The notes beneath the pieces are model-generated. The model was not told where the DNA came from and searched no databases. It was given only the letters and a program-made list of their open reading frames with translations. Position numbers and translations under genes: made by a program. A stretch of 57,837 nt of DNA, the filler included, from Asterionella formosa (lineage: Eukaryota): the NCBI GenBank assembly GCA_002256025.1. It is 4 parts of 4 records of this genome, joined end to end, with 100 filler letters (N's around TTAATTAATTAA, not from the genome) between each part and the next. Parts side by side here need not be neighbours in the genome. Positions count along the whole stretch, not along the records: positions 43,469 to 57,837 come from NKIB01006018.1; 3 more parts are not named here. The stretch is one strand, 5' to 3'. Shown here piece after piece: positions 44,844 through 52,209 of this stretch. Position 1 is the first letter of the stretch. Every line of letters begins with the position of its first letter.

Positions 44844-46766
44844 ATGGCTCTTCGTGTTGTCGCTAGTAAGGCAAGTGATTCATTTGACCGATTCCTTCTG
44901 ATATTACTGGAATAGATGGGATCGATATTTGTGGCAACGATCGACTGCAACGACGCCGTTGGATTTTTGACGGGCCCAGTACGGACCACCGAGTAGACAC
45001 GAGTACATAGATGTACGAGAGTGAACTATGGCGGTAAACCGGTGCAAATCATGGTCCTTGCAATCACTTTTCTAACCTTGCCTCCTACATTCATCAAATA
45101 ACTAACTAACTTAACCAACTAACTAACATAACCGAACGAACAAACAAACAAACTCAACTAATGGAACATGACAGCTGAATACAGCGAGGACAACAACCCT
45201 TCGCTCGTTCGCCACTACTTCTGCCGTCCAAAGCTTCCCAGACTATGTGCTTCGAGCTCCGACTACTGATGTCACCACCATGGACTCTGGGTTGAGAGTT
45301 GCCAGCGAAACTGTCATGGGAAGTGAAACCGCAACGGTGGGAGTTTGGATCGATGCTGGATCGCGTTACGAAACAGCCACTAACAATGGAACGGCTCACT
45401 TTTTAGAGCACATGGCCTTCAAGGGAACGACCAAGCGCACGCAGCGACAGTTGGAAGTAGAGATTGAAAACATGGGTGGGCACTTGTAAGTGTGAAGAGG
45501 TCCATATTTTCGTTGGCCTTGCGTTGAGATGCCAACTAACGTTCAATTAATATATTACCAGGAACGCCTACACTTCTCGCGAACAAACTGTTTACTTTGC
45601 CAAGGTCTTCAAAAGTGATGTTGGCAAGGCCGTCGAGATTCTCTCTGATATTCTTCTCCACTCCAAATTGGATCCGAGTGCCATCGAACGAGAGAGAGAT
45701 GTTATTCTGAGAGAAATGTCAGAAGTAAACAAACTACACGAAGAACTCGTCTTGGACCACTTGCATGCCACTGCCTTTCAAGGCACCGGATTGGGACGTA
45801 CCATTTTGGGACCAGAAGAGAATATCCGTTCCTTGTCGAAGGACGATTTGATGGAATATATCTCGACGCATTACACTGCTCCTCGAATGGTCATTGCTGG
45901 GGCAGGGGCCATTAATCATGACGAACTTTGTGGGTTGGCAGCGACTCATTTTGGAAATCTGCCAACGACTCCAAAAGGAGCGGTGGAAGTGGCCATGGAT
46001 CCTGCGGTTTTTACTGGAAGTGATGTTCGGTAAGTAAAACGAGTGCTTCGGTTAGTTGCTTGTGCAGTAACTGCATCACAATCCCTGCAAAATATAGTTG
46101 TGTTGTGTAATAGGCCCTTATCCTTCTGCTTCTTTGCCCACCAATGATAGAATTCGATTCGATTCAGACGAAACTGCCCACTTTGCAATTGCCTTCCAGG
46201 GTGCTTCTTGGACTTCGGAATACAGTTTTCCTCTCATGTTGATGCAGGCCATGCTCGGTAGCTACGACCGAACATCTGGACTAGGCAGGAATTCTGCCTC
46301 CAGACTTGCTCAAGAAATTGCCATTGACGAATTAGCCCACTCTGTTTCGGCCTTTAACACGTCCTACAAAGACACTGGACTATTTGGTGTGTACGCTGTC
46401 GCTCCAGACATCAAGCTTGACGACTTGATGTGGTACATCATGAACAACCTTGTTCGGTTGGTGCATGCTCCATCAGACGAAGAAGTTGAACGCGCCAAGG
46501 TCAGCCTCAAAGCCACCATGCTCATGTCTTTGGACGGAAATGCTAATGTTTGCGAGGATATCGGTCGGCAGCTTCTGACGTATGGACGGCGCATGACGAC
46601 GGCAGAGATCTTTTCGCGCATCGATGCCGTCACGACGGATGACATCAAGGCGACAGCTGCAAAATTCATTAATGACAATGATCATGCTCTTGCGGCTGTG
46701 GGTGGAATCCATGAACTTCCTGATTACAACTGGATTCGCCGCCACAGTTACTGGCTCCGTTACTAA
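44844..46766 (+). CDS. PMPCB: Mitochondrial processing peptidase beta subunit / complex III core protein; exons 44844-44870, 45175-45485, 45562-46029, 46151-46766
   Basis: Presequence [21 protein letters not shown], inverted zincin [22 protein letters not shown] and [12 protein letters not shown]. Three introns restore one frame. Confidence 0.95.
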
Positions 46767-47130
46767 GATTATGTTGTTTTCGTGGTTCTGGTTGATTCAA
46801 CAACGAGATACACCTTTTATTATAACGCATTTTAGCAAAGGCTGTTCCACTCACTGTTATTTTGAATCTTACATGGTAACAGTATCTAACTTCTACAAGA
46901 TAGGGGACTATTGTGACAGTGTCAAATATATTAGCAATGGCGTGGCTCACACAAAGCTTCCTTAGTTAAGAAATAAACTTTCTGGTCAACGTTAATAAAC
47001 GTGTGTTTGAACCCAGACTAACAAAATGAATAAAGTGTATTTATTGCAACACGGCAAAGAACCGTCCCATAGATGTAAAATTGAACATTCTTAAACTTTC
47101 TCTCAAGACCTCAAAGCAGCTATTATTTGT

Positions 47131-48966
47131 TTAGGACGAATATACAAAGCTATGGCTCATGCTCACTGGCGGACTTGGCTCATCACGCCGGGCGACCAGA
47201 AAGCCCAAGGTTAGGTCCGGCCCCATTACATGTTGCAATAAATCGTCCGTTTCAAACAGATCTAATGCTTCCTCCAAGGATGCGGGTAACTCACTGTTCT
47301 TCTCAGTATTGTTGAGCGGCGGTCGCAGTGTCTTGTTTTCCAATGTACCCACGACACCACAGGCCAAAATTAATGCGACAGATAGGTACAAATTTACTGT
47401 GGCATCCGCCAATCTATAGACCATATAAAAGGGATTTTCATTCCGGCGACCGACTTTTATTGGAGAGTCCTTGTCATCGAAATCCCAGCCCAACTTACTG
47501 TTTTCACAAAAAGTCCCAGATGTAACAGCCATCAAGGCAGGGAGGCGTTCCAAGACGCCTTCCACAAAGGACTGATCCTCCAATGTAACATAGTTGTCAT
47601 TTTTCAGCTGTTTATCATCAAGTTCATTCTCTTGCACTTTCTTTCGACATGATATTTGAAGAGCGAGGCCGTGATTACCAAGAAATCGCTGAAAGGACAC
47701 AATTTGGCCGGCTTCCTTAGCAGCACCTAAAACAATGTCTTGTGCCAAAGTAAGCATATCAACAAACTTGACCGGATTTCGTTGGTCCCCAAAAACAATA
47801 TCAATATCAGGCTCTCCACATTCAGCGTGAGAAATAGGCACATTGAATTCTTTCAAACGCATCAAGACAGTAGCCAATAGACTTTCTTGATCTTGAATAT
47901 CAAACTCGTTGCCCAACAAACGAAATTTCAAGCTGCCTCCAATTCTAAAGTCAAGCCCATGCTTGGCAAGGGCAGTCGTGACAACACGAGCTAGAAGTCC
48001 ACGAGGGCACTCCGAGCGAAGTGTCAGTTGTTGAAGCGCGGCTTCACTCACACTGTACCCAAAGACCATGGCCATTTTGGAATGAGGCAGAACTCTCAAA
48101 CTTGCAAAATCCGGCTTAACGACAAGATTGTTCTGAAAGCGCACCAAAGTATTGGCTCGAATCCCCTCGACTGGAATTGATTTGATGTTACTGCCACCCA
48201 CACCGATACTAACCACTCTCACTAACGTAATCTCTGATGCTTGGAGCAAGTGCATCAATGATTCAACAACGCCCTCTTCGGTGGACGGCAACGGAAAGTC
48301 AGTTTTTGACATGAGTTGTAAGACGTCCTTAGCGTTTACGACTTCAGCTTCATGTTGAAAGATAGGCCGAAAGGATAACATAATGGATTTGGCTTCATCA
48401 ATATCGCTTTTGACGGCACCTGTAGCCTGAAGAGTTTCTACCAGATGAGCCAGAAACATGTCGAAATGCAATTCATTGAGGCCATGATGTTGAAACAAAC
48501 GTTCATGTTTCTGCAAAATATACAAGGGTACATCAGCTGATTCGGGAACTTTGGAAAATACCAACTTAAGAAAAGCCCGTTGATGTCTCTTGACTTTGCT
48601 CATCGAGACTCCAATGAAAAAGATTCCAAGCACCGGATCTTCCACGAGGCGTTTGTAAAATGCTTCGACAACCCCTTCAAGGGTTGTGTCACCACCAAAG
48701 CGCTCTAACAGACAGACTTTGCTGCCTTCTGACCTGCGGGACGACGATACTTCTGACGTTGTGAAAGAATGGCGCTGAGAATATTTGGATGAAGAATTAG
48801 TGGATATTTTGGATGGAGAAGAATTACGATTGTTTTTACTGCGTCGAAAGACCGGGAACGCCTCGAACGCGCCAGTATTAGTCCGTTGAGGCGCCTGATT
48901 GCTGGACGCTGTGGAAAGTTCCGTGTCTGTGAGATTGCGACGAGAGAAAATGGGAGATCCCTTCAT
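47131..48966 (-). CDS. Fusion of a group 1 truncated (2/2) hemoglobin and a degenerate glutamine-synthetase-like domain
   Basis: aa 86-203: LLERFGG...VEAFY...DPVLGIFF...HQRAFL...H(F8)...GLNELHFD. aa ~245-600: KPDFASLRVLP, CPRGLL, FVEGVLERLPAL, YRLADATVNLYL and LPASLEEAL, typical of GSI/FluG/PuuA-like folds. Confidence 0.85.
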   Translation of the reverse strand: MKGSPIFSRRNLTDTELSTASSNQAPQRTNTGAFEAFPVFRRSKNNRNSSPSKISTNSSSKYSQRHSFTTSEVSSSRRSEGSKVCLLERFGGDTTLEGVVEAFYKRLVEDPVLGIFFIGVSMSKVKRHQRAFLKLVFSKVPESADVPLYILQKHERLFQHHGLNELHFDMFLAHLVETLQATGAVKSDIDEAKSIMLSFRPIFQHEAEVVNAKDVLQLMSKTDFPLPSTEEGVVESLMHLLQASEITLVRVVSIGVGGSNIKSIPVEGIRANTLVRFQNNLVVKPDFASLRVLPHSKMAMVFGYSVSEAALQQLTLRSECPRGLLARVVTTALAKHGLDFRIGGSLKFRLLGNEFDIQDQESLLATVLMRLKEFNVPISHAECGEPDIDIVFGDQRNPVKFVDMLTLAQDIVLGAAKEAGQIVSFQRFLGNHGLALQISCRKKVQENELDDKQLKNDNYVTLEDQSFVEGVLERLPALMAVTSGTFCENSKLGWDFDDKDSPIKVGRRNENPFYMVYRLADATVNLYLSVALILACGVVGTLENKTLRPPLNNTEKNSELPASLEEALDLFETDDLLQHVMGPDLTLGFLVARRDEPSPPVSMSHSFVYSS

Positions 48967-50863
48967 ATTGTTGGCTGTCTCTATTTTTTGTTTGTAATAT
49001 TATCGATTCGCTCAGGCTTGGGAGGGGACGGGTGTGTGGACTTTTGAATGTTGAAAGTGAAATGAAAGGATTGTGAATTGTGAATACACTTCAGCAAAGT
49101 ATTGTATTGCAATCCAGCACTAGCGAAGATTTGTCTATTGCTGTGCTAAAATTGGTACTGGTAATGCAATTCAGAGCTTTATATGTATCCTTCGAAGGGA
49201 TCTCTCTGATCGAGCTGAATGCAACAATATTTGTGGTAATAGGTGTCAATATATATATAATACTGATGGTACCCTGGAAGCACAAATTGTGAGTGCATGA
49301 AAAAAGACCACATCCGCACGATGACTGGAACGATATACCCTAGTGGGTGCGTCCGTTGTGTTCGATCAATGACATAATGCCCCTTGGTGGCGTGAGCAAG
49401 GCATGCTACTTGGCTGGTTCCTGCAAAATGCGGTAATGGAGCTGAAGCTAAATATTCAGGTATCTTTCTCCGATATTAAAATTGTTTATTTAAGCCAAAT
49501 GACCGCAACTTGCTGTTATCCCTGTACGTTGAACTGTACAACAGTCTGCCTAAATCTCAGCGTGCACCAATCAACATTGTTTTCGTGCTGAGCATAGGTA
49601 CAGTTGACGTAGACATAATAGCTCCCGTACTGTATCTTAGTCATCTTGTTCGGATACCGGTATACCGGTTTCGGTACTCCGAGGAATGATCTTTCCTTTC
49701 TGCTATTCTGCTATAATGGGGCATTTCTCCCTTATCTGCAGTGTTCCATGAAAAGAAGAAAGATATGCAAGATCATAATCTCCCCCCTTCATAGTGTAGG
49801 GTTGTTCAAGCTGGCAAAGGGAGTCCTTGGTTGTTTGGACAGTAAAAAAATAAAGAAAAAGAAACCTCATGCTATATGCTTGTTGGGGATGTGATGCATT
49901 TGTGAAGGCTAGATCCACCATTGCAGTATATCCCCCCTAATGAGAGAATCGGCAAGCCAGTCCAGGTGTTGTTGATGCTTGAGAGGTGGGAAGACATGGT
50001 GACTTTTTGTTTGCAACAACAGCTGCTTTGACCATATGGAATCTGCATCAAACAAGCACAGTGGTTCCAAGGAGTGGGGAGAGCAGGAAGGTCTGATAAA
50101 CTAGTAATGGAAAATGGAAACACGATGTGAACAACTGCAGTATAAATCACACTAAACTCAATTGTTGTCACTGGACAATGAAAAAACGCTTTCCAAATGT
50201 TCAATTCTACTTATGTGTGGTTTGCTGTTTAAATTAATTTCATAGTAGTACCCTGTTAGTTTTACCGCTGGTTGCAGTTGGCTGTCTGCTATTAATTCAT
50301 AGGTTGCTTGCTTCAACATACATAAATATTTATTTGTCATATATATAGCTACCATACTGTGCCTGATCACCATTGAATGACTTTACCAGGGGTACATTCC
50401 AATATTTCTCCAGTATGTATCATTGGCCCTCCAGGCATTGCCTAGTAGTACAGAATACATACCTACATACATACTTTGCAAAGGTCTATCAAGTATTTTG
50501 TGAAACTCAATGGTAAATATGCGGCTATGCCTGCTTGCGTTTACTTAGTTACACCAATAAAAATATGCCATAATCCCATTTGGCCAGTCACCAACAAGGA
50601 TCAGATCATGTTTGCCCTCCATGTATGCATAGATACATCCCACTTCCAAACCATGTGGATGCAGTATGACCTTTTCTCACAAAAGACAAGGGATACAGAA
50701 AGAGAGTTCTTTGAGACATGCATTAGGTCACCCTTGCCACACCATAATTTACTAAATATGAACAACTCATTTCAAATGTTTATAGTGAAGTAGAAGGAGC
50801 AGGGATGCCTTACTATCAGACTGCAGTTATTTTATGGCTATATTGCTTATTTATGTAGAGCTA

Positions 50864-51682
50864 TTATTTTCGTTTCGCAGAAATGGTGCTCAAAATCATT
50901 AACCAAAAGAAGCTGATCAAGGCAATGAATGGAATTCTCAAATGAACTGGAATAACCCCAAATGTTAGACACTGGACTGGAATCCAAATGGTCCAATATT
51001 TGGTCAAAAGGCCCTGAGTTTGTACATGAAGTACATAATTTTCCAATGCCTCCATGATTGTTTCATCGCTATTGATACTGGCCTTGACAATGTAGGCAAC
51101 CGGCAAACAAAGAAATGGAGTAAGGAGTAACATATCGACTGTAACTTGACCCACAACAGATGCAAATGTCACATTGAGACCAAATATTTTAGGAAATAGG
51201 ACATTGTAGAGGTAATATTGGACCATGCCTTGATAAAGTCCACCATATAGCAAGAAACCAAGATTTCGAACCACATTGATATTTCTGTTGACAACCATGG
51301 CTTTTCCTGTTTCACCTTGTGAAGTTGTAATCGTCGTCATCGTCGTCAATGAACGTACTGGATTGATAGTACCACCATAATTACTTGCTGTGTCACTCCA
51401 TAATAATCCTTGACGAGTTTGTGCAATCAAGTCAGCTGCAGATGCCTTGACAGAACATGTGACAAACGCAGACAAGTAGGGTTGGGTCTCGTAAAAGTGA
51501 TTCAATGTGGAAAGTGTTGTCGATCCATCCACCATCAACAACAATGCCTGGTCATTTCGTTGTCCTATAGTGGTGCTACTAGTAGCAAGAGGAGGAGGAA
51601 CGAATGCAAAAGCGTTTCGTGTTGATGTTAGTGGGAGTACAAGGAACAATCGAGTGATCCAGAGCAGCATAACACCTGACAT
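50864..51682 (-). CDS. Mpv17/PMP22 family membrane protein, probably plastid-targeted
   Basis: SAADLIAQ, RNLGFLLYGGLYQG and WTIWIPVQCLTFGVIPVHLRIPF. Signal peptide followed by AFAFVPP and a Ser/Thr-rich transit-like region from the ATG at 51682. Confidence 0.9.
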   Translation of the reverse strand: MSGVMLLWITRLFLVLPLTSTRNAFAFVPPPLATSSTTIGQRNDQALLLMVDGSTTLSTLNHFYETQPYLSAFVTCSVKASAADLIAQTRQGLLWSDTASNYGGTINPVRSLTTMTTITTSQGETGKAMVVNRNINVVRNLGFLLYGGLYQGMVQYYLYNVLFPKIFGLNVTFASVVGQVTVDMLLLTPFLCLPVAYIVKASINSDETIMEALENYVLHVQTQGLLTKYWTIWIPVQCLTFGVIPVHLRIPFIALISFFWLMILSTISAKRK

Positions 51683-52209
51683 ACGGACATAAAGAAAAAA
51701 GCCAAGGATGAAATCATGTCGAGTAATGTATCGATGCTCCGCCTGCCTCACCAAGGACAAAGATGCTAAATTGGACGAGTGGGTGTGTATCCTCGTCGCT
51801 CACCAGTAGGCACGTACGTGATGTTCCTGTACAGCACCGTTACCAGGTAGGTACCAGGGTAGTTACTAGGTAACAGATACCATACTTGTACCGGTGCCTG
51901 GACTCTCGAAGGACCTACTACGACCCTGGTACCGAGTACTACCTGGTACCAGGCTACTGGTTCTTTCTTTCCTCGATCATTTCTAATGGATATACATCCA
52001 TATATCTTACGTGTGTGCTAACTAAACTACTACGGTACCAGGTACCGTTATGGACATATCATGCTACCAGGTGCATAGAGTGAATTGCTATGATGTTTGG
52101 ATACTACCAGTACCGGTATGGTACCCTTGTACCAGGTATACATATGTAACAAAAAGGAAAAAACTGTCGTGATTTGGCAAAATTGTCACGGGAACAAAAG
52201 TCTTCGACG

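Follow-up and report, generated by a model that had tools for sequence, protein, structure and literature searches.

Within a 57,837-nucleotide stretch of DNA from Asterionella formosa (GenBank assembly GCA_002256025.1), referred to in its full length as the window, the segment 47131..48966 of the minus strand, in the part taken from record NKIB01006018.1, encodes a 611-residue protein, P0001, that joins a group-1 truncated hemoglobin domain to a domain with the fold of glutamine synthetase (GS) from which the catalytic centre has been lost. P0001 is the product of an expressed, single-exon eukaryotic nuclear gene, and the arrangement is a new architecture from known parts. The C-terminal domain belongs to the GS superfamily by its fold; it fails the defining catalytic features of that superfamily and is not to be filed as glutamine synthetase. 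The pseudoenzyme status proposed in an initial annotation made from the window alone, and its persistence under constraint, are well grounded on alignment evidence: one of the six metal ligands is left, and the GS domain is conserved about as strongly as the globin, far above the disordered parts of the protein (8-32%).

Gene Organization and Transcription

The open reading frame (ORF) comprises 611 codons plus the stop, is complete and uninterrupted, and its start Met region (M..SRR..ELST) matches the start of the orthologue P0004. Five consecutive regions can be recognized, all on the minus strand, including (i) a Ser/Arg/Asn-rich N-terminus (residues 1-84, 48715..48966), predicted to be disordered from its predicted local distance difference test (pLDDT) values and bearing an RRS motif conserved in the orthologue alignment; (ii) the group-1 truncated (2/2) hemoglobin domain (residues 85-205, 48352..48714), delimited by Pfam PF01152, phmmer, and a pLDDT of ~90-98; (iii) a partly disordered interdomain linker (residues 206-229, 48280..48351), defined by pLDDT and orthologue identity; (iv) a shortened GS N-terminal β-grasp domain (residues 230-330, 47977..48279), recognized from alignment gaps and from the VIA structural alignment, which begins at model residue 230; and (v) a GS catalytic-domain fold devoid of its catalytic centre (residues 331-604, 47155..47976), assigned by Pfam PF00120, Foldseek, and VIA. 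The AF2 model of P0001 displays a mean pLDDT of 81.9 and a predicted TM-score (pTM) of 0.66, with both domains mostly above 90 and low-confidence segments at residues 1-79 (pLDDT <50), 214-225 (<50), and 603-611. The RRS motif is kept in all five fusion-family sequences that cover the N-terminus and is accompanied by many basic-Ser sites, from which one might speculate that this segment is subject to phospho-regulation.

Of 12 sequencing runs listed, 11 contain the stretch or part of it, 10 of these 11 being RNA according to their records. In one study, four metatranscriptome runs of lake water contain 83-91% of the sampled words. Contigs of four runs (X1, X2, X3, and X5) were aligned to positions 46700-49600. 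The longest single contig confined to the gene, from run X3, measures 2042 nucleotides (nt) and covers 47103..49139, reaching ~173 nt beyond the ORF on the 5' side and 28 nt on the 3' side; a 1548-nt contig from run X2, a polyA library, covers 47158-48704, and a 3153-nt contig from run X1 covers 46700-49219, both bridging the domain junction. The junction (~48240-48350) is thus bridged in three runs of one study, whereas run X5, from a second study, contributes shorter pieces of 95-99% likeness. No contig shows a joint, and the ORF is colinear with the RNA. The window differs from the RNA contigs at 19 single bases, comprising eight synonymous and 11 non-synonymous changes, too few to infer selection; within the GS module the numbers are three and four, two of the latter four falling in a variable insert.

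These data bear out much of the initial annotation, which had described an intronless 611-residue ORF with a Ser/Arg-rich N-terminus and had read the fusion as one gene. The ORF is present exactly as claimed, the N-terminus is of the composition and low model confidence expected, colinear contigs free of joints over the whole ORF fit the absence of introns, and the unity of the gene is supported both by its conservation in orthologues and by RNA contigs that span the two domains. Three of the checks that the annotation had called for likewise turned out in its favour: RNA crosses 48350-48240, the Pfam search places both Bac_globin and Gln-synt_C above cutoff, and structure prediction models both domains confidently, with the GS part on the fold of type I GS (GSI).

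Truncated Hemoglobin Domain

As judged by sequence, the N-terminal domain of P0001 belongs to the group-1 truncated hemoglobins (TrHbN). The Pfam profile Bac_globin (PF01152) matches residues 87-199 with 30 bits (cutoff, 21), and in phmmer searches with residues 86-204 the closest solved sequence relatives are THB1, THB4, GlbN, and HbN from M. tuberculosis, with Chlamydomonas THB1 (PDB code, 4xdi) matching at E 3.2e-18 and 68.8 bits and cyanobacterial GlbN at E 2e-14. The key positions of the heme pocket, all on the minus strand, can be read from these alignments: (i) Tyr104 (48655..48657) occupies B10, aligned with the THB1 Tyr and with GlbN Tyr22; (ii) His128-Gln129 (48580..48585), within an invariant KRHQ motif, occupy E10-E11, with His128 aligned with GlbN His46 and a Lys of THB1; and (iii) His154 (48505..48507), within an invariant KHERLF motif, corresponds to the proximal heme ligand at F8. 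F116/F117 align with the CD1 Phe pair of THB1 and GlbN, and V125 lies at E7. Y104, F116/F117, H128, Q129, and H154 are invariant in all six aligned family members, as are both motifs. The group 1 2/2 globin with B10 Tyr and F8 His proposed in the initial annotation therefore stands, since Y104 and H154 align to THB1 and GlbN.

Comparison of the pocket with THB1 and GlbN in the sequence alignments reveals identity at Tyr B10, Phe CD1, Gln E11, and His F8. At E10, the position of the potential sixth ligand, P0001 has His as in GlbN, where THB1 has Lys, while E7 is Val in P0001 (Ile/Val/Leu in orthologues) rather than Gln. We take GlbN His46 and the THB1 Lys of the E10 column to be the sixth heme ligands of those proteins; because H128 sits at this same column, a hexacoordinate resting state of the P0001 heme is plausible. 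Altogether, the P0001 globin looks heme-competent, and we infer that it binds heme. Whereas THB1 and GlbN are single-domain proteins of ~125-135 residues, P0001 adds an 84-residue disordered N-terminus and a 380-residue GS-fold C-terminus.

Globin-coupled sensors link a signalling transmitter domain to an N-terminal sensor globin of the 3/3 S family. Membership of P0001 in this group was considered and ruled out, its globin being of the 2/2 T family and its C-terminal domain a GS fold, not a known transmitter.

Other truncated-globin chimeras were encountered among the matches (P0024, P0070, P0116, P0007, and P0152), with layouts that include two globins with a protein kinase and EF-hands (938 residues), a globin with ankyrin repeats (573 residues), and a globin with HNOBA (714 residues). 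Two very long multi-match proteins were also noted, one of 1882 residues with 12 matching stretches, the best in the globin region, and one of 3347 residues with 22, the best in the GS region.

Fold of the GS-Like Domain

The Pfam profile Gln-synt_C (PF00120) matches residues 371-596 with 63.9 bits (cutoff, 24), covering profile positions 82-328 of 344; scores lie at 64-73 bits in the fused sequences versus 184-253 in their relatives. NCBIfam matches are weak, reaching 50.8 bits for gamma-glutamylputrescine synthetase (cutoff, 650), 43.1 bits for type III GS (GlnT; cutoff, 470), and 36 bits for GlnA (cutoff, 429). A Foldseek search of the PDB with the P0001 model returns gamma-glutamylmethylamide synthetase at the top, followed by archaeal and bacterial GS, with a best E of 8.8e-20, and the VIA structural alignment superposes model residues 230-604 on nearly whole dodecameric GS chains (Z 39.4, root-mean-square deviation 2.7 Å, 358 residues). 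As modelled, P0001 thus comprises both the β-grasp and the catalytic domain of the GSI fold. A look-up of the GS part in the ESM Atlas returned generic GS-family clusters only, and a complex prediction with two copies of residues 228-611 scored 0.00, a value obtained without controls that has no bearing either way on oligomerization.

The module is nevertheless shortened, so that the description 'full-length' in the initial annotation has to be given up. The β-grasp domain lacks ~23 residues relative to the sister fusion P0014 and up to ~45 relative to other relatives; the deleted loop sits between residues 272 and 273 and matches the FDGSS/Asp50 segment ('yfdgss') of solved GS. A second loop, equivalent to 16 alignment columns, is missing after residue 356 compared with relatives, and an 11-residue flap segment (P-G-C-W-T-G-H in relatives) is deleted. 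Residues 441-462 form a variable insert.

Loss of the Catalytic Centre

An exhaustive representative search retrieved ~25 proteins that match residues 250-600 at 28-36% identity, with Pfam layouts of either standalone Gln-synt_C or fusions of isochorismatase to Gln-synt_C. The motif mapping was checked on P0046, one of these proteins, which can be aligned with a solved GS for 406 residues (E 6e-38) and in which all the canonical motifs are present (G-x-E-x-E-F, H-E-x-x-P-G-Q-x-E, G-x-G-x-H-x-H-x-S, N-S-x-x-R, and E-x-K/R). Residue states were read from a MAFFT alignment of five fused orthologue sequences and 20 canonical relatives; the E. coli/Salmonella site numbering, the set of six metal ligands, and the PROSITE ATP signature are those that we take to be standard.

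The six metal ligands (E, E, E, E, H, E) are all kept in 20 of the 20 relatives, whereas P0001 keeps one, the equivalent positions reading S345, K347, E382, D389, A435, and V516. In detail, (i) the E129 site is S345 in P0001 and S/S/T/S/T in the five fused sequences; (ii) the E131 site is K347 (K/T/T/T/T); (iii) the E212 site is E382, retained in all five; (iv) the E220 site is D389 (D/T/K/T/K); (v) the H269 site is A435 (A/S/L/S/M); and (vi) the E357 site is V516 (V/D/D/D/E). Three further sites are altered relative to the uniform state of the 20 relatives: H271 (His 20/20) is Q437, with Gln in 5/5 fused sequences, R344 (Arg 20/20) is K504 (K/G/G/G/G), and R321 (Arg 20/20) is K491 (K/K/K/R/K). 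In the window, on the minus strand and according to the alignment, these changes map to S345-L346-K347 (47926..47934), where GGSLKF replaces the E-x-E strand; to E382...D389 (47800..47823), where E212 is kept and the Q218 and E220 positions are replaced and variable; to A435-L-Q437-I-S439 (47650..47664), which replaces H-x-H-x-S of the ATP/metal motif; and to V516-Y-R518 (47413..47421), which replaces E-x-K/R (E357, R359). The P-K ahead of the glycine-rich ATP motif is deleted, leaving Ser as the sole residue of the ATP signature. The 20 relatives share 59 invariant columns; all five fused sequences agree with them at 24 of these, the other 35 having been altered or deleted. Given these replacements, canonical two-metal, ATP-dependent ligation by this domain is not credible.

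The erosion listed in the initial annotation is mostly upheld, with E129, E131, E220, and H269 replaced as it described. Its reading of E357 as Val holds for P0001, but Val occurs in this sequence only, the other four having D/D/D/E. Its inclusion of NR339 does not hold: the position reads D498-K499 in P0001, and Lys at R339, like Lys at R359, is the state of 20 of the 20 relatives that keep every metal ligand, and for this reason is, on the alignment, a family trait and not erosion.

These relatives carry Trp where GS has the flap Glu and are, because of it, probably ligases for something other than ammonium.

The isochorismatase (PF00857) and GS-like (PF00120) fusions form a family of their own, with lengths of 576-853 residues (P0027, P0030, P0033, P0048, P0053, P0057, P0078, P0115, P0192, and P0194). 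The eight included in the alignment keep the six GS metal ligands, whereas Trp takes the place of the flap Glu and Lys that of both R339 and R359; they probably ligate gamma-glutamyl groups to some amine, in combination with a hydrolase. A literature search for an isochorismatase-GS fusion in diatoms returned only an unrelated fungal paper.

Could the GS-like domain of P0001 still be an enzyme, with an altered, metal-poor chemistry such as that of a hydrolase or transferase acting on a gamma-glutamyl compound? E382 and several polar residues are retained, and GSI-like enzymes have diversified toward other amine substrates, as illustrated by GmaS and 1-naphthylamine GS, which rank near the top of the structural searches, and by a GSI-like theanine synthetase (PMC9909507). 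However, those diversified enzymes are all ATP- and metal-dependent ligases, whereas P0001 has lost the metal ligands, the ATP-motif histidines, the P-K, and R344, and its NCBIfam scores of 36-51 bits fall far from the cutoffs of 429-650, which makes residual enzymatic activity a very improbable explanation.

Conservation of the Fused Protein

Orthologues with the same architecture comprise P0003, P0004 (622 residues), and P0006 (536 residues, N-terminally cut), while P0005 is a fragment of the GS part; P0003 is a 735-residue model with an unlikely 5' extension, a 616-residue version being present in its cluster. Identity of these four sequences to P0001 amounts to 47-51%. Measured by region for P0001 versus P0003, P0004, and P0006, it reaches 30-32% in the N-terminus (a region that P0006 lacks), 56-59% in the globin, 47-59% in the linker (residues 206-239), 43-59% in three GS segments, 14-23% in the insert 441-462, and 8-30% in the tail. 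Within the GS module, 118 of 352 residues are invariant in 5/5 fused sequences. The intact frame and retained fold that the initial annotation had pointed out thus extend to the orthologues, in which the frame is open and the GS module is conserved about like the globin.

A profile search with the family alignment found, among the 7999 candidates listed, P0002, P0004, and P0006 as the only two-domain members, P0003 not being among them. When the same alignment was searched against metagenome contigs, the matches listed comprised five loci, all ordinary truncated globins of 35-49% identity over the globin only. The spread of the dead form is narrow, comprising four 90% clusters, with two sister clusters beside them.

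Conservation also bears on the possibility that the locus is a decaying gene or an annotation artefact, the single ORF being in truth a pseudogene or a pair of genes. A 611-residue ORF by itself is no proof of a gene, and some fragments are named only 'glutamine synthetase' by JGI. Against this, three further lineages have the same ORF open across both domains (47-50% identity), RNA contigs cross the junction without joints, the linker is as conserved as reported above, and AF2 is confident for both domains; an artefact is barely conceivable.

Sister Fusions and Evolutionary Origin

In an unrooted maximum-likelihood tree computed by quick search from the GS region (38 rows and 419 columns), the five dead-GS sequences group as one clade with an SH-aLRT of 100; the stem of this clade measures 1.49 substitutions per site, whereas terminal branches have a median of 0.35. 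The isochorismatase-GS-like family (P0027, P0030, P0033, and others) is the nearest family in this tree, all of its metal ligands being kept, unlike those of P0001. On this tree and the alignment, the GS domain has gone through a burst of change followed by constraint. Neutral decay is strongly argued against, because a ~370-codon frame remains open in four divergent lineages.

Two further sequences, P0014 and P0018, join the same globin lineage, recognizable by the KRHQ.FLK and KHERLF motifs, to a GS N-domain. They are 39% identical to P0001 over 293 residues and 37% over 284 residues, respectively, and both retain the 23-residue β-grasp segment deleted in P0001. Their ORFs stop at ...L-V-F-V-S, right before the E-x-E strand, so that any catalytic domain would lie beyond them. 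The isochorismatase-family fragment P0187 stops at the same point (...F-V-S/F-V-R-V, before the G-x-E-x-E-F strand). An intron is the likely cause of this shared stop point, and the similar ending of three relatives of different fusion types suggests a conserved intron position that is lacking in P0001.

To judge from P0014 and P0018, the fusion probably arose with a GS-like domain of the active type; later, in one sublineage, the GS part would have changed in a burst, lost its catalytic centre, and then come under constraint. A single fusion to an active-type domain with subsequent decay in one sublineage is the simplest reading of the sequences.

Proposed Function

In our working model, the globin would be the chemically active part, a hexacoordinate-capable heme protein performing nitric oxide (NO) dioxygenation or other redox or gas chemistry like THB1, and the dead GS domain would act as a non-catalytic assembly or docking module, either as a scaffold that forms rings or as a surface for binding partners, and would in this way position or regulate the heme domain within nitrogen metabolism. 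We give this model somewhat better than even credence; heme binding, NO/O2 chemistry, the scaffold role, and the nitrogen link would each be predictions of it. A scaffold or interface role is favoured over a conserved small-molecule site because the orthologues differ at catalytic positions but share a fixed core. The O2 or NO sensor and the link to nitrogen assimilation proposed in the initial annotation would go beyond what sequence, conservation, and transcription show. GS rings are known as docking platforms for regulators, as the solved GS-TnrA, GS-GlnR peptide, and GS-GlnK1 complexes, identified by PDB title, illustrate. THB1 is reported to convert NO to nitrate and to modulate nitrate reductase (PMC6779911).

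Several observations weigh against this reading. RNA libraries can contain DNA, and contigs reveal neither strand nor transcript ends. Truncated hemoglobins usually carry Gly-Gly hinge motifs at AB and EF; the first is present in P0001 (G91-G92) but the second is not evident, P0001 having FSKVPES where THB1 has FGGSG. In the unrooted GS-region tree, the sister fusions attach beside the dead clade with weak support (49). Finally, the former active-site residues E382, Q437, S439, D521, and N525 are invariant in the clade, and a basic residue (R/K) is retained at 491, 499, and 518 in 5/5 fused sequences; because several such positions are invariant, the GS domain may hold a small-ligand pocket or perform unusual chemistry.

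The same residues would support a metabolite sensor, in which a remnant pocket would bind, but not turn over, glutamate, glutamine, 2-oxoglutarate, or a nucleotide and would signal nitrogen status to the heme domain or to the N-terminal phospho-region, and an archaeal GS has been solved with the effector 2-oxoglutarate (PDB title, 8ooq). Since the five fused sequences differ freely at four of the six metal positions, deletions have removed the flap and two pocket loops, and the ATP motif is destroyed, we regard such a sensor as quite improbable.

A different partnership is conceivable, in which the dead GS domain co-assembles in mixed rings with intact GS-like paralogues, standalone or isochorismatase-fused, or docks onto them, poisoning or tuning their activity while the globin adds NO, O2, or redox dependence. 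The active sites of GS lie between neighbouring subunits, and the deleted β-grasp loop corresponds to the part that each GS subunit contributes to the active site of the adjacent one, where we presume a role for Asp50. An intact paralogous family exists at 24-34% identity, with six metal ligands in 20/20 members, and the fused proteins conserve the fold and the core positions but vary at the catalytic ones. Mixed assembly is unlikely all the same: it presumes intact GS-like paralogues in the host organism, and the long stem branch could equally have altered the ring interfaces. Its boldest form, a new eukaryotic heme-based regulator in which the dead GS domain sits in or on rings of an active gamma-glutamyl-amine ligase paralogue and the globin confers the response to NO, O2, or redox state, is decidedly improbable; if true, it would constitute a direct gas-to-nitrogen-assimilation switch in these algae, made from a pseudoenzyme.

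Neighboring Genes

A gene of the M16 peptidase type (insulinase/processing peptidase), with at least three ORFs at 45247-46766 on the plus strand, lies downstream of the globin-GS gene and convergent with it; the broken M16 ORFs point to spliceosomal introns and therefore to a eukaryotic nuclear context. The X1 contig spans the 3' ends of both genes, whose 3' untranslated regions may overlap unless the assembler merged them. Upstream, a 298-residue ORF at 50864-51760 on the minus strand contains a C-terminal Mpv17/PMP22 family domain. These neighbours, M16 peptidase and Mpv17/PMP22, give no functional hint.

A 33-nt element at 49484-49516 on the minus strand, ~520 nt upstream of the ORF, accumulates RNA contigs of two studies, with summed depths of 377 and 589 versus 0-20 beside it, the contig flanks being unlike the window on both sides. 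The element has no Rfam match, is no tRNA, and is single-copy in the window.

Relation to Known Systems and Significance

GSI-type GS and the gamma-glutamyl-amine ligases (GlnA, GmaS, PuuA-like, and GSI-like enzymes) share with P0001 the two-domain fold of β-grasp and catalytic barrel. Unlike them, P0001 has one of six metal ligands and is devoid of the ATP-motif His-x-His, the P-K, R344, the flap, and two loops. Lengsin, a vertebrate lens pseudoenzyme with the GS fold, is catalytically incompetent yet retained and is thought to be structural. It offers a functional analogy for the dead GS domain, as a functional class and not as a clade: P0001 fits this class, having the GS fold, a lost catalytic centre, and retention under selection, whereas lengsin is presumably of independent origin and lineage and has no globin.

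Truncated or other globins built into enzymes of nitrogen metabolism are described for the raphidophyte nitrate reductase NR2-2/2HbN and for further chimeras of algae or cyanobacteria such as the globin-NO synthase SyNOS, where the proposed role of the globin is to turn NO into nitrate for assimilation (PMC9837059, PMC6104048). The partner in those chimeras is an active enzyme able to supply electrons, whereas that of P0001 is dead and has no evident redox cofactor site. In Phaeodactylum, J37967 is a nitrate-sensitive Bac_globin gene (PMC6779911), considered here as a possible further carrier of the architecture.

The novelty claimed in the initial annotation stands in part. No description of a globin-GS fusion was found in the literature searched, which included the GS-like pseudoenzyme precedents lengsin, FluG, and NodGS and had the 2013 review of microbial eukaryote globins outside its scope, and a term look-up found 'glutamine' absent from the available text of four globin surveys (PMC7475203, PMC4101818, PMC8717448, PMC4720485). 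The architecture is, however, already represented in protein catalogues built from metagenomes, where the two Pfam domains have been precomputed and the proteins are unnamed or labelled 'hemoglobin' or 'glutamine synthetase' (JGI); an NCBI or UniRef accession is absent from all cluster members examined.

This narrow family, known from environmental sequence only, has a limited reach, yet P0001 is an easy target for expression and assay. It offers a clean natural case of pseudoenzyme birth, in which the dead form can be compared with relatives of the active type and with a probable fusion intermediate. Algal truncated hemoglobins have been linked to the removal of NO and the control of nitrate assimilation, and GS-fold proteins are central to nitrogen metabolism; a conserved, transcribed fusion of the two, with the GS half made into a non-enzyme, points to an unstudied route that may couple NO, O2, or redox state to nitrogen in phytoplankton.

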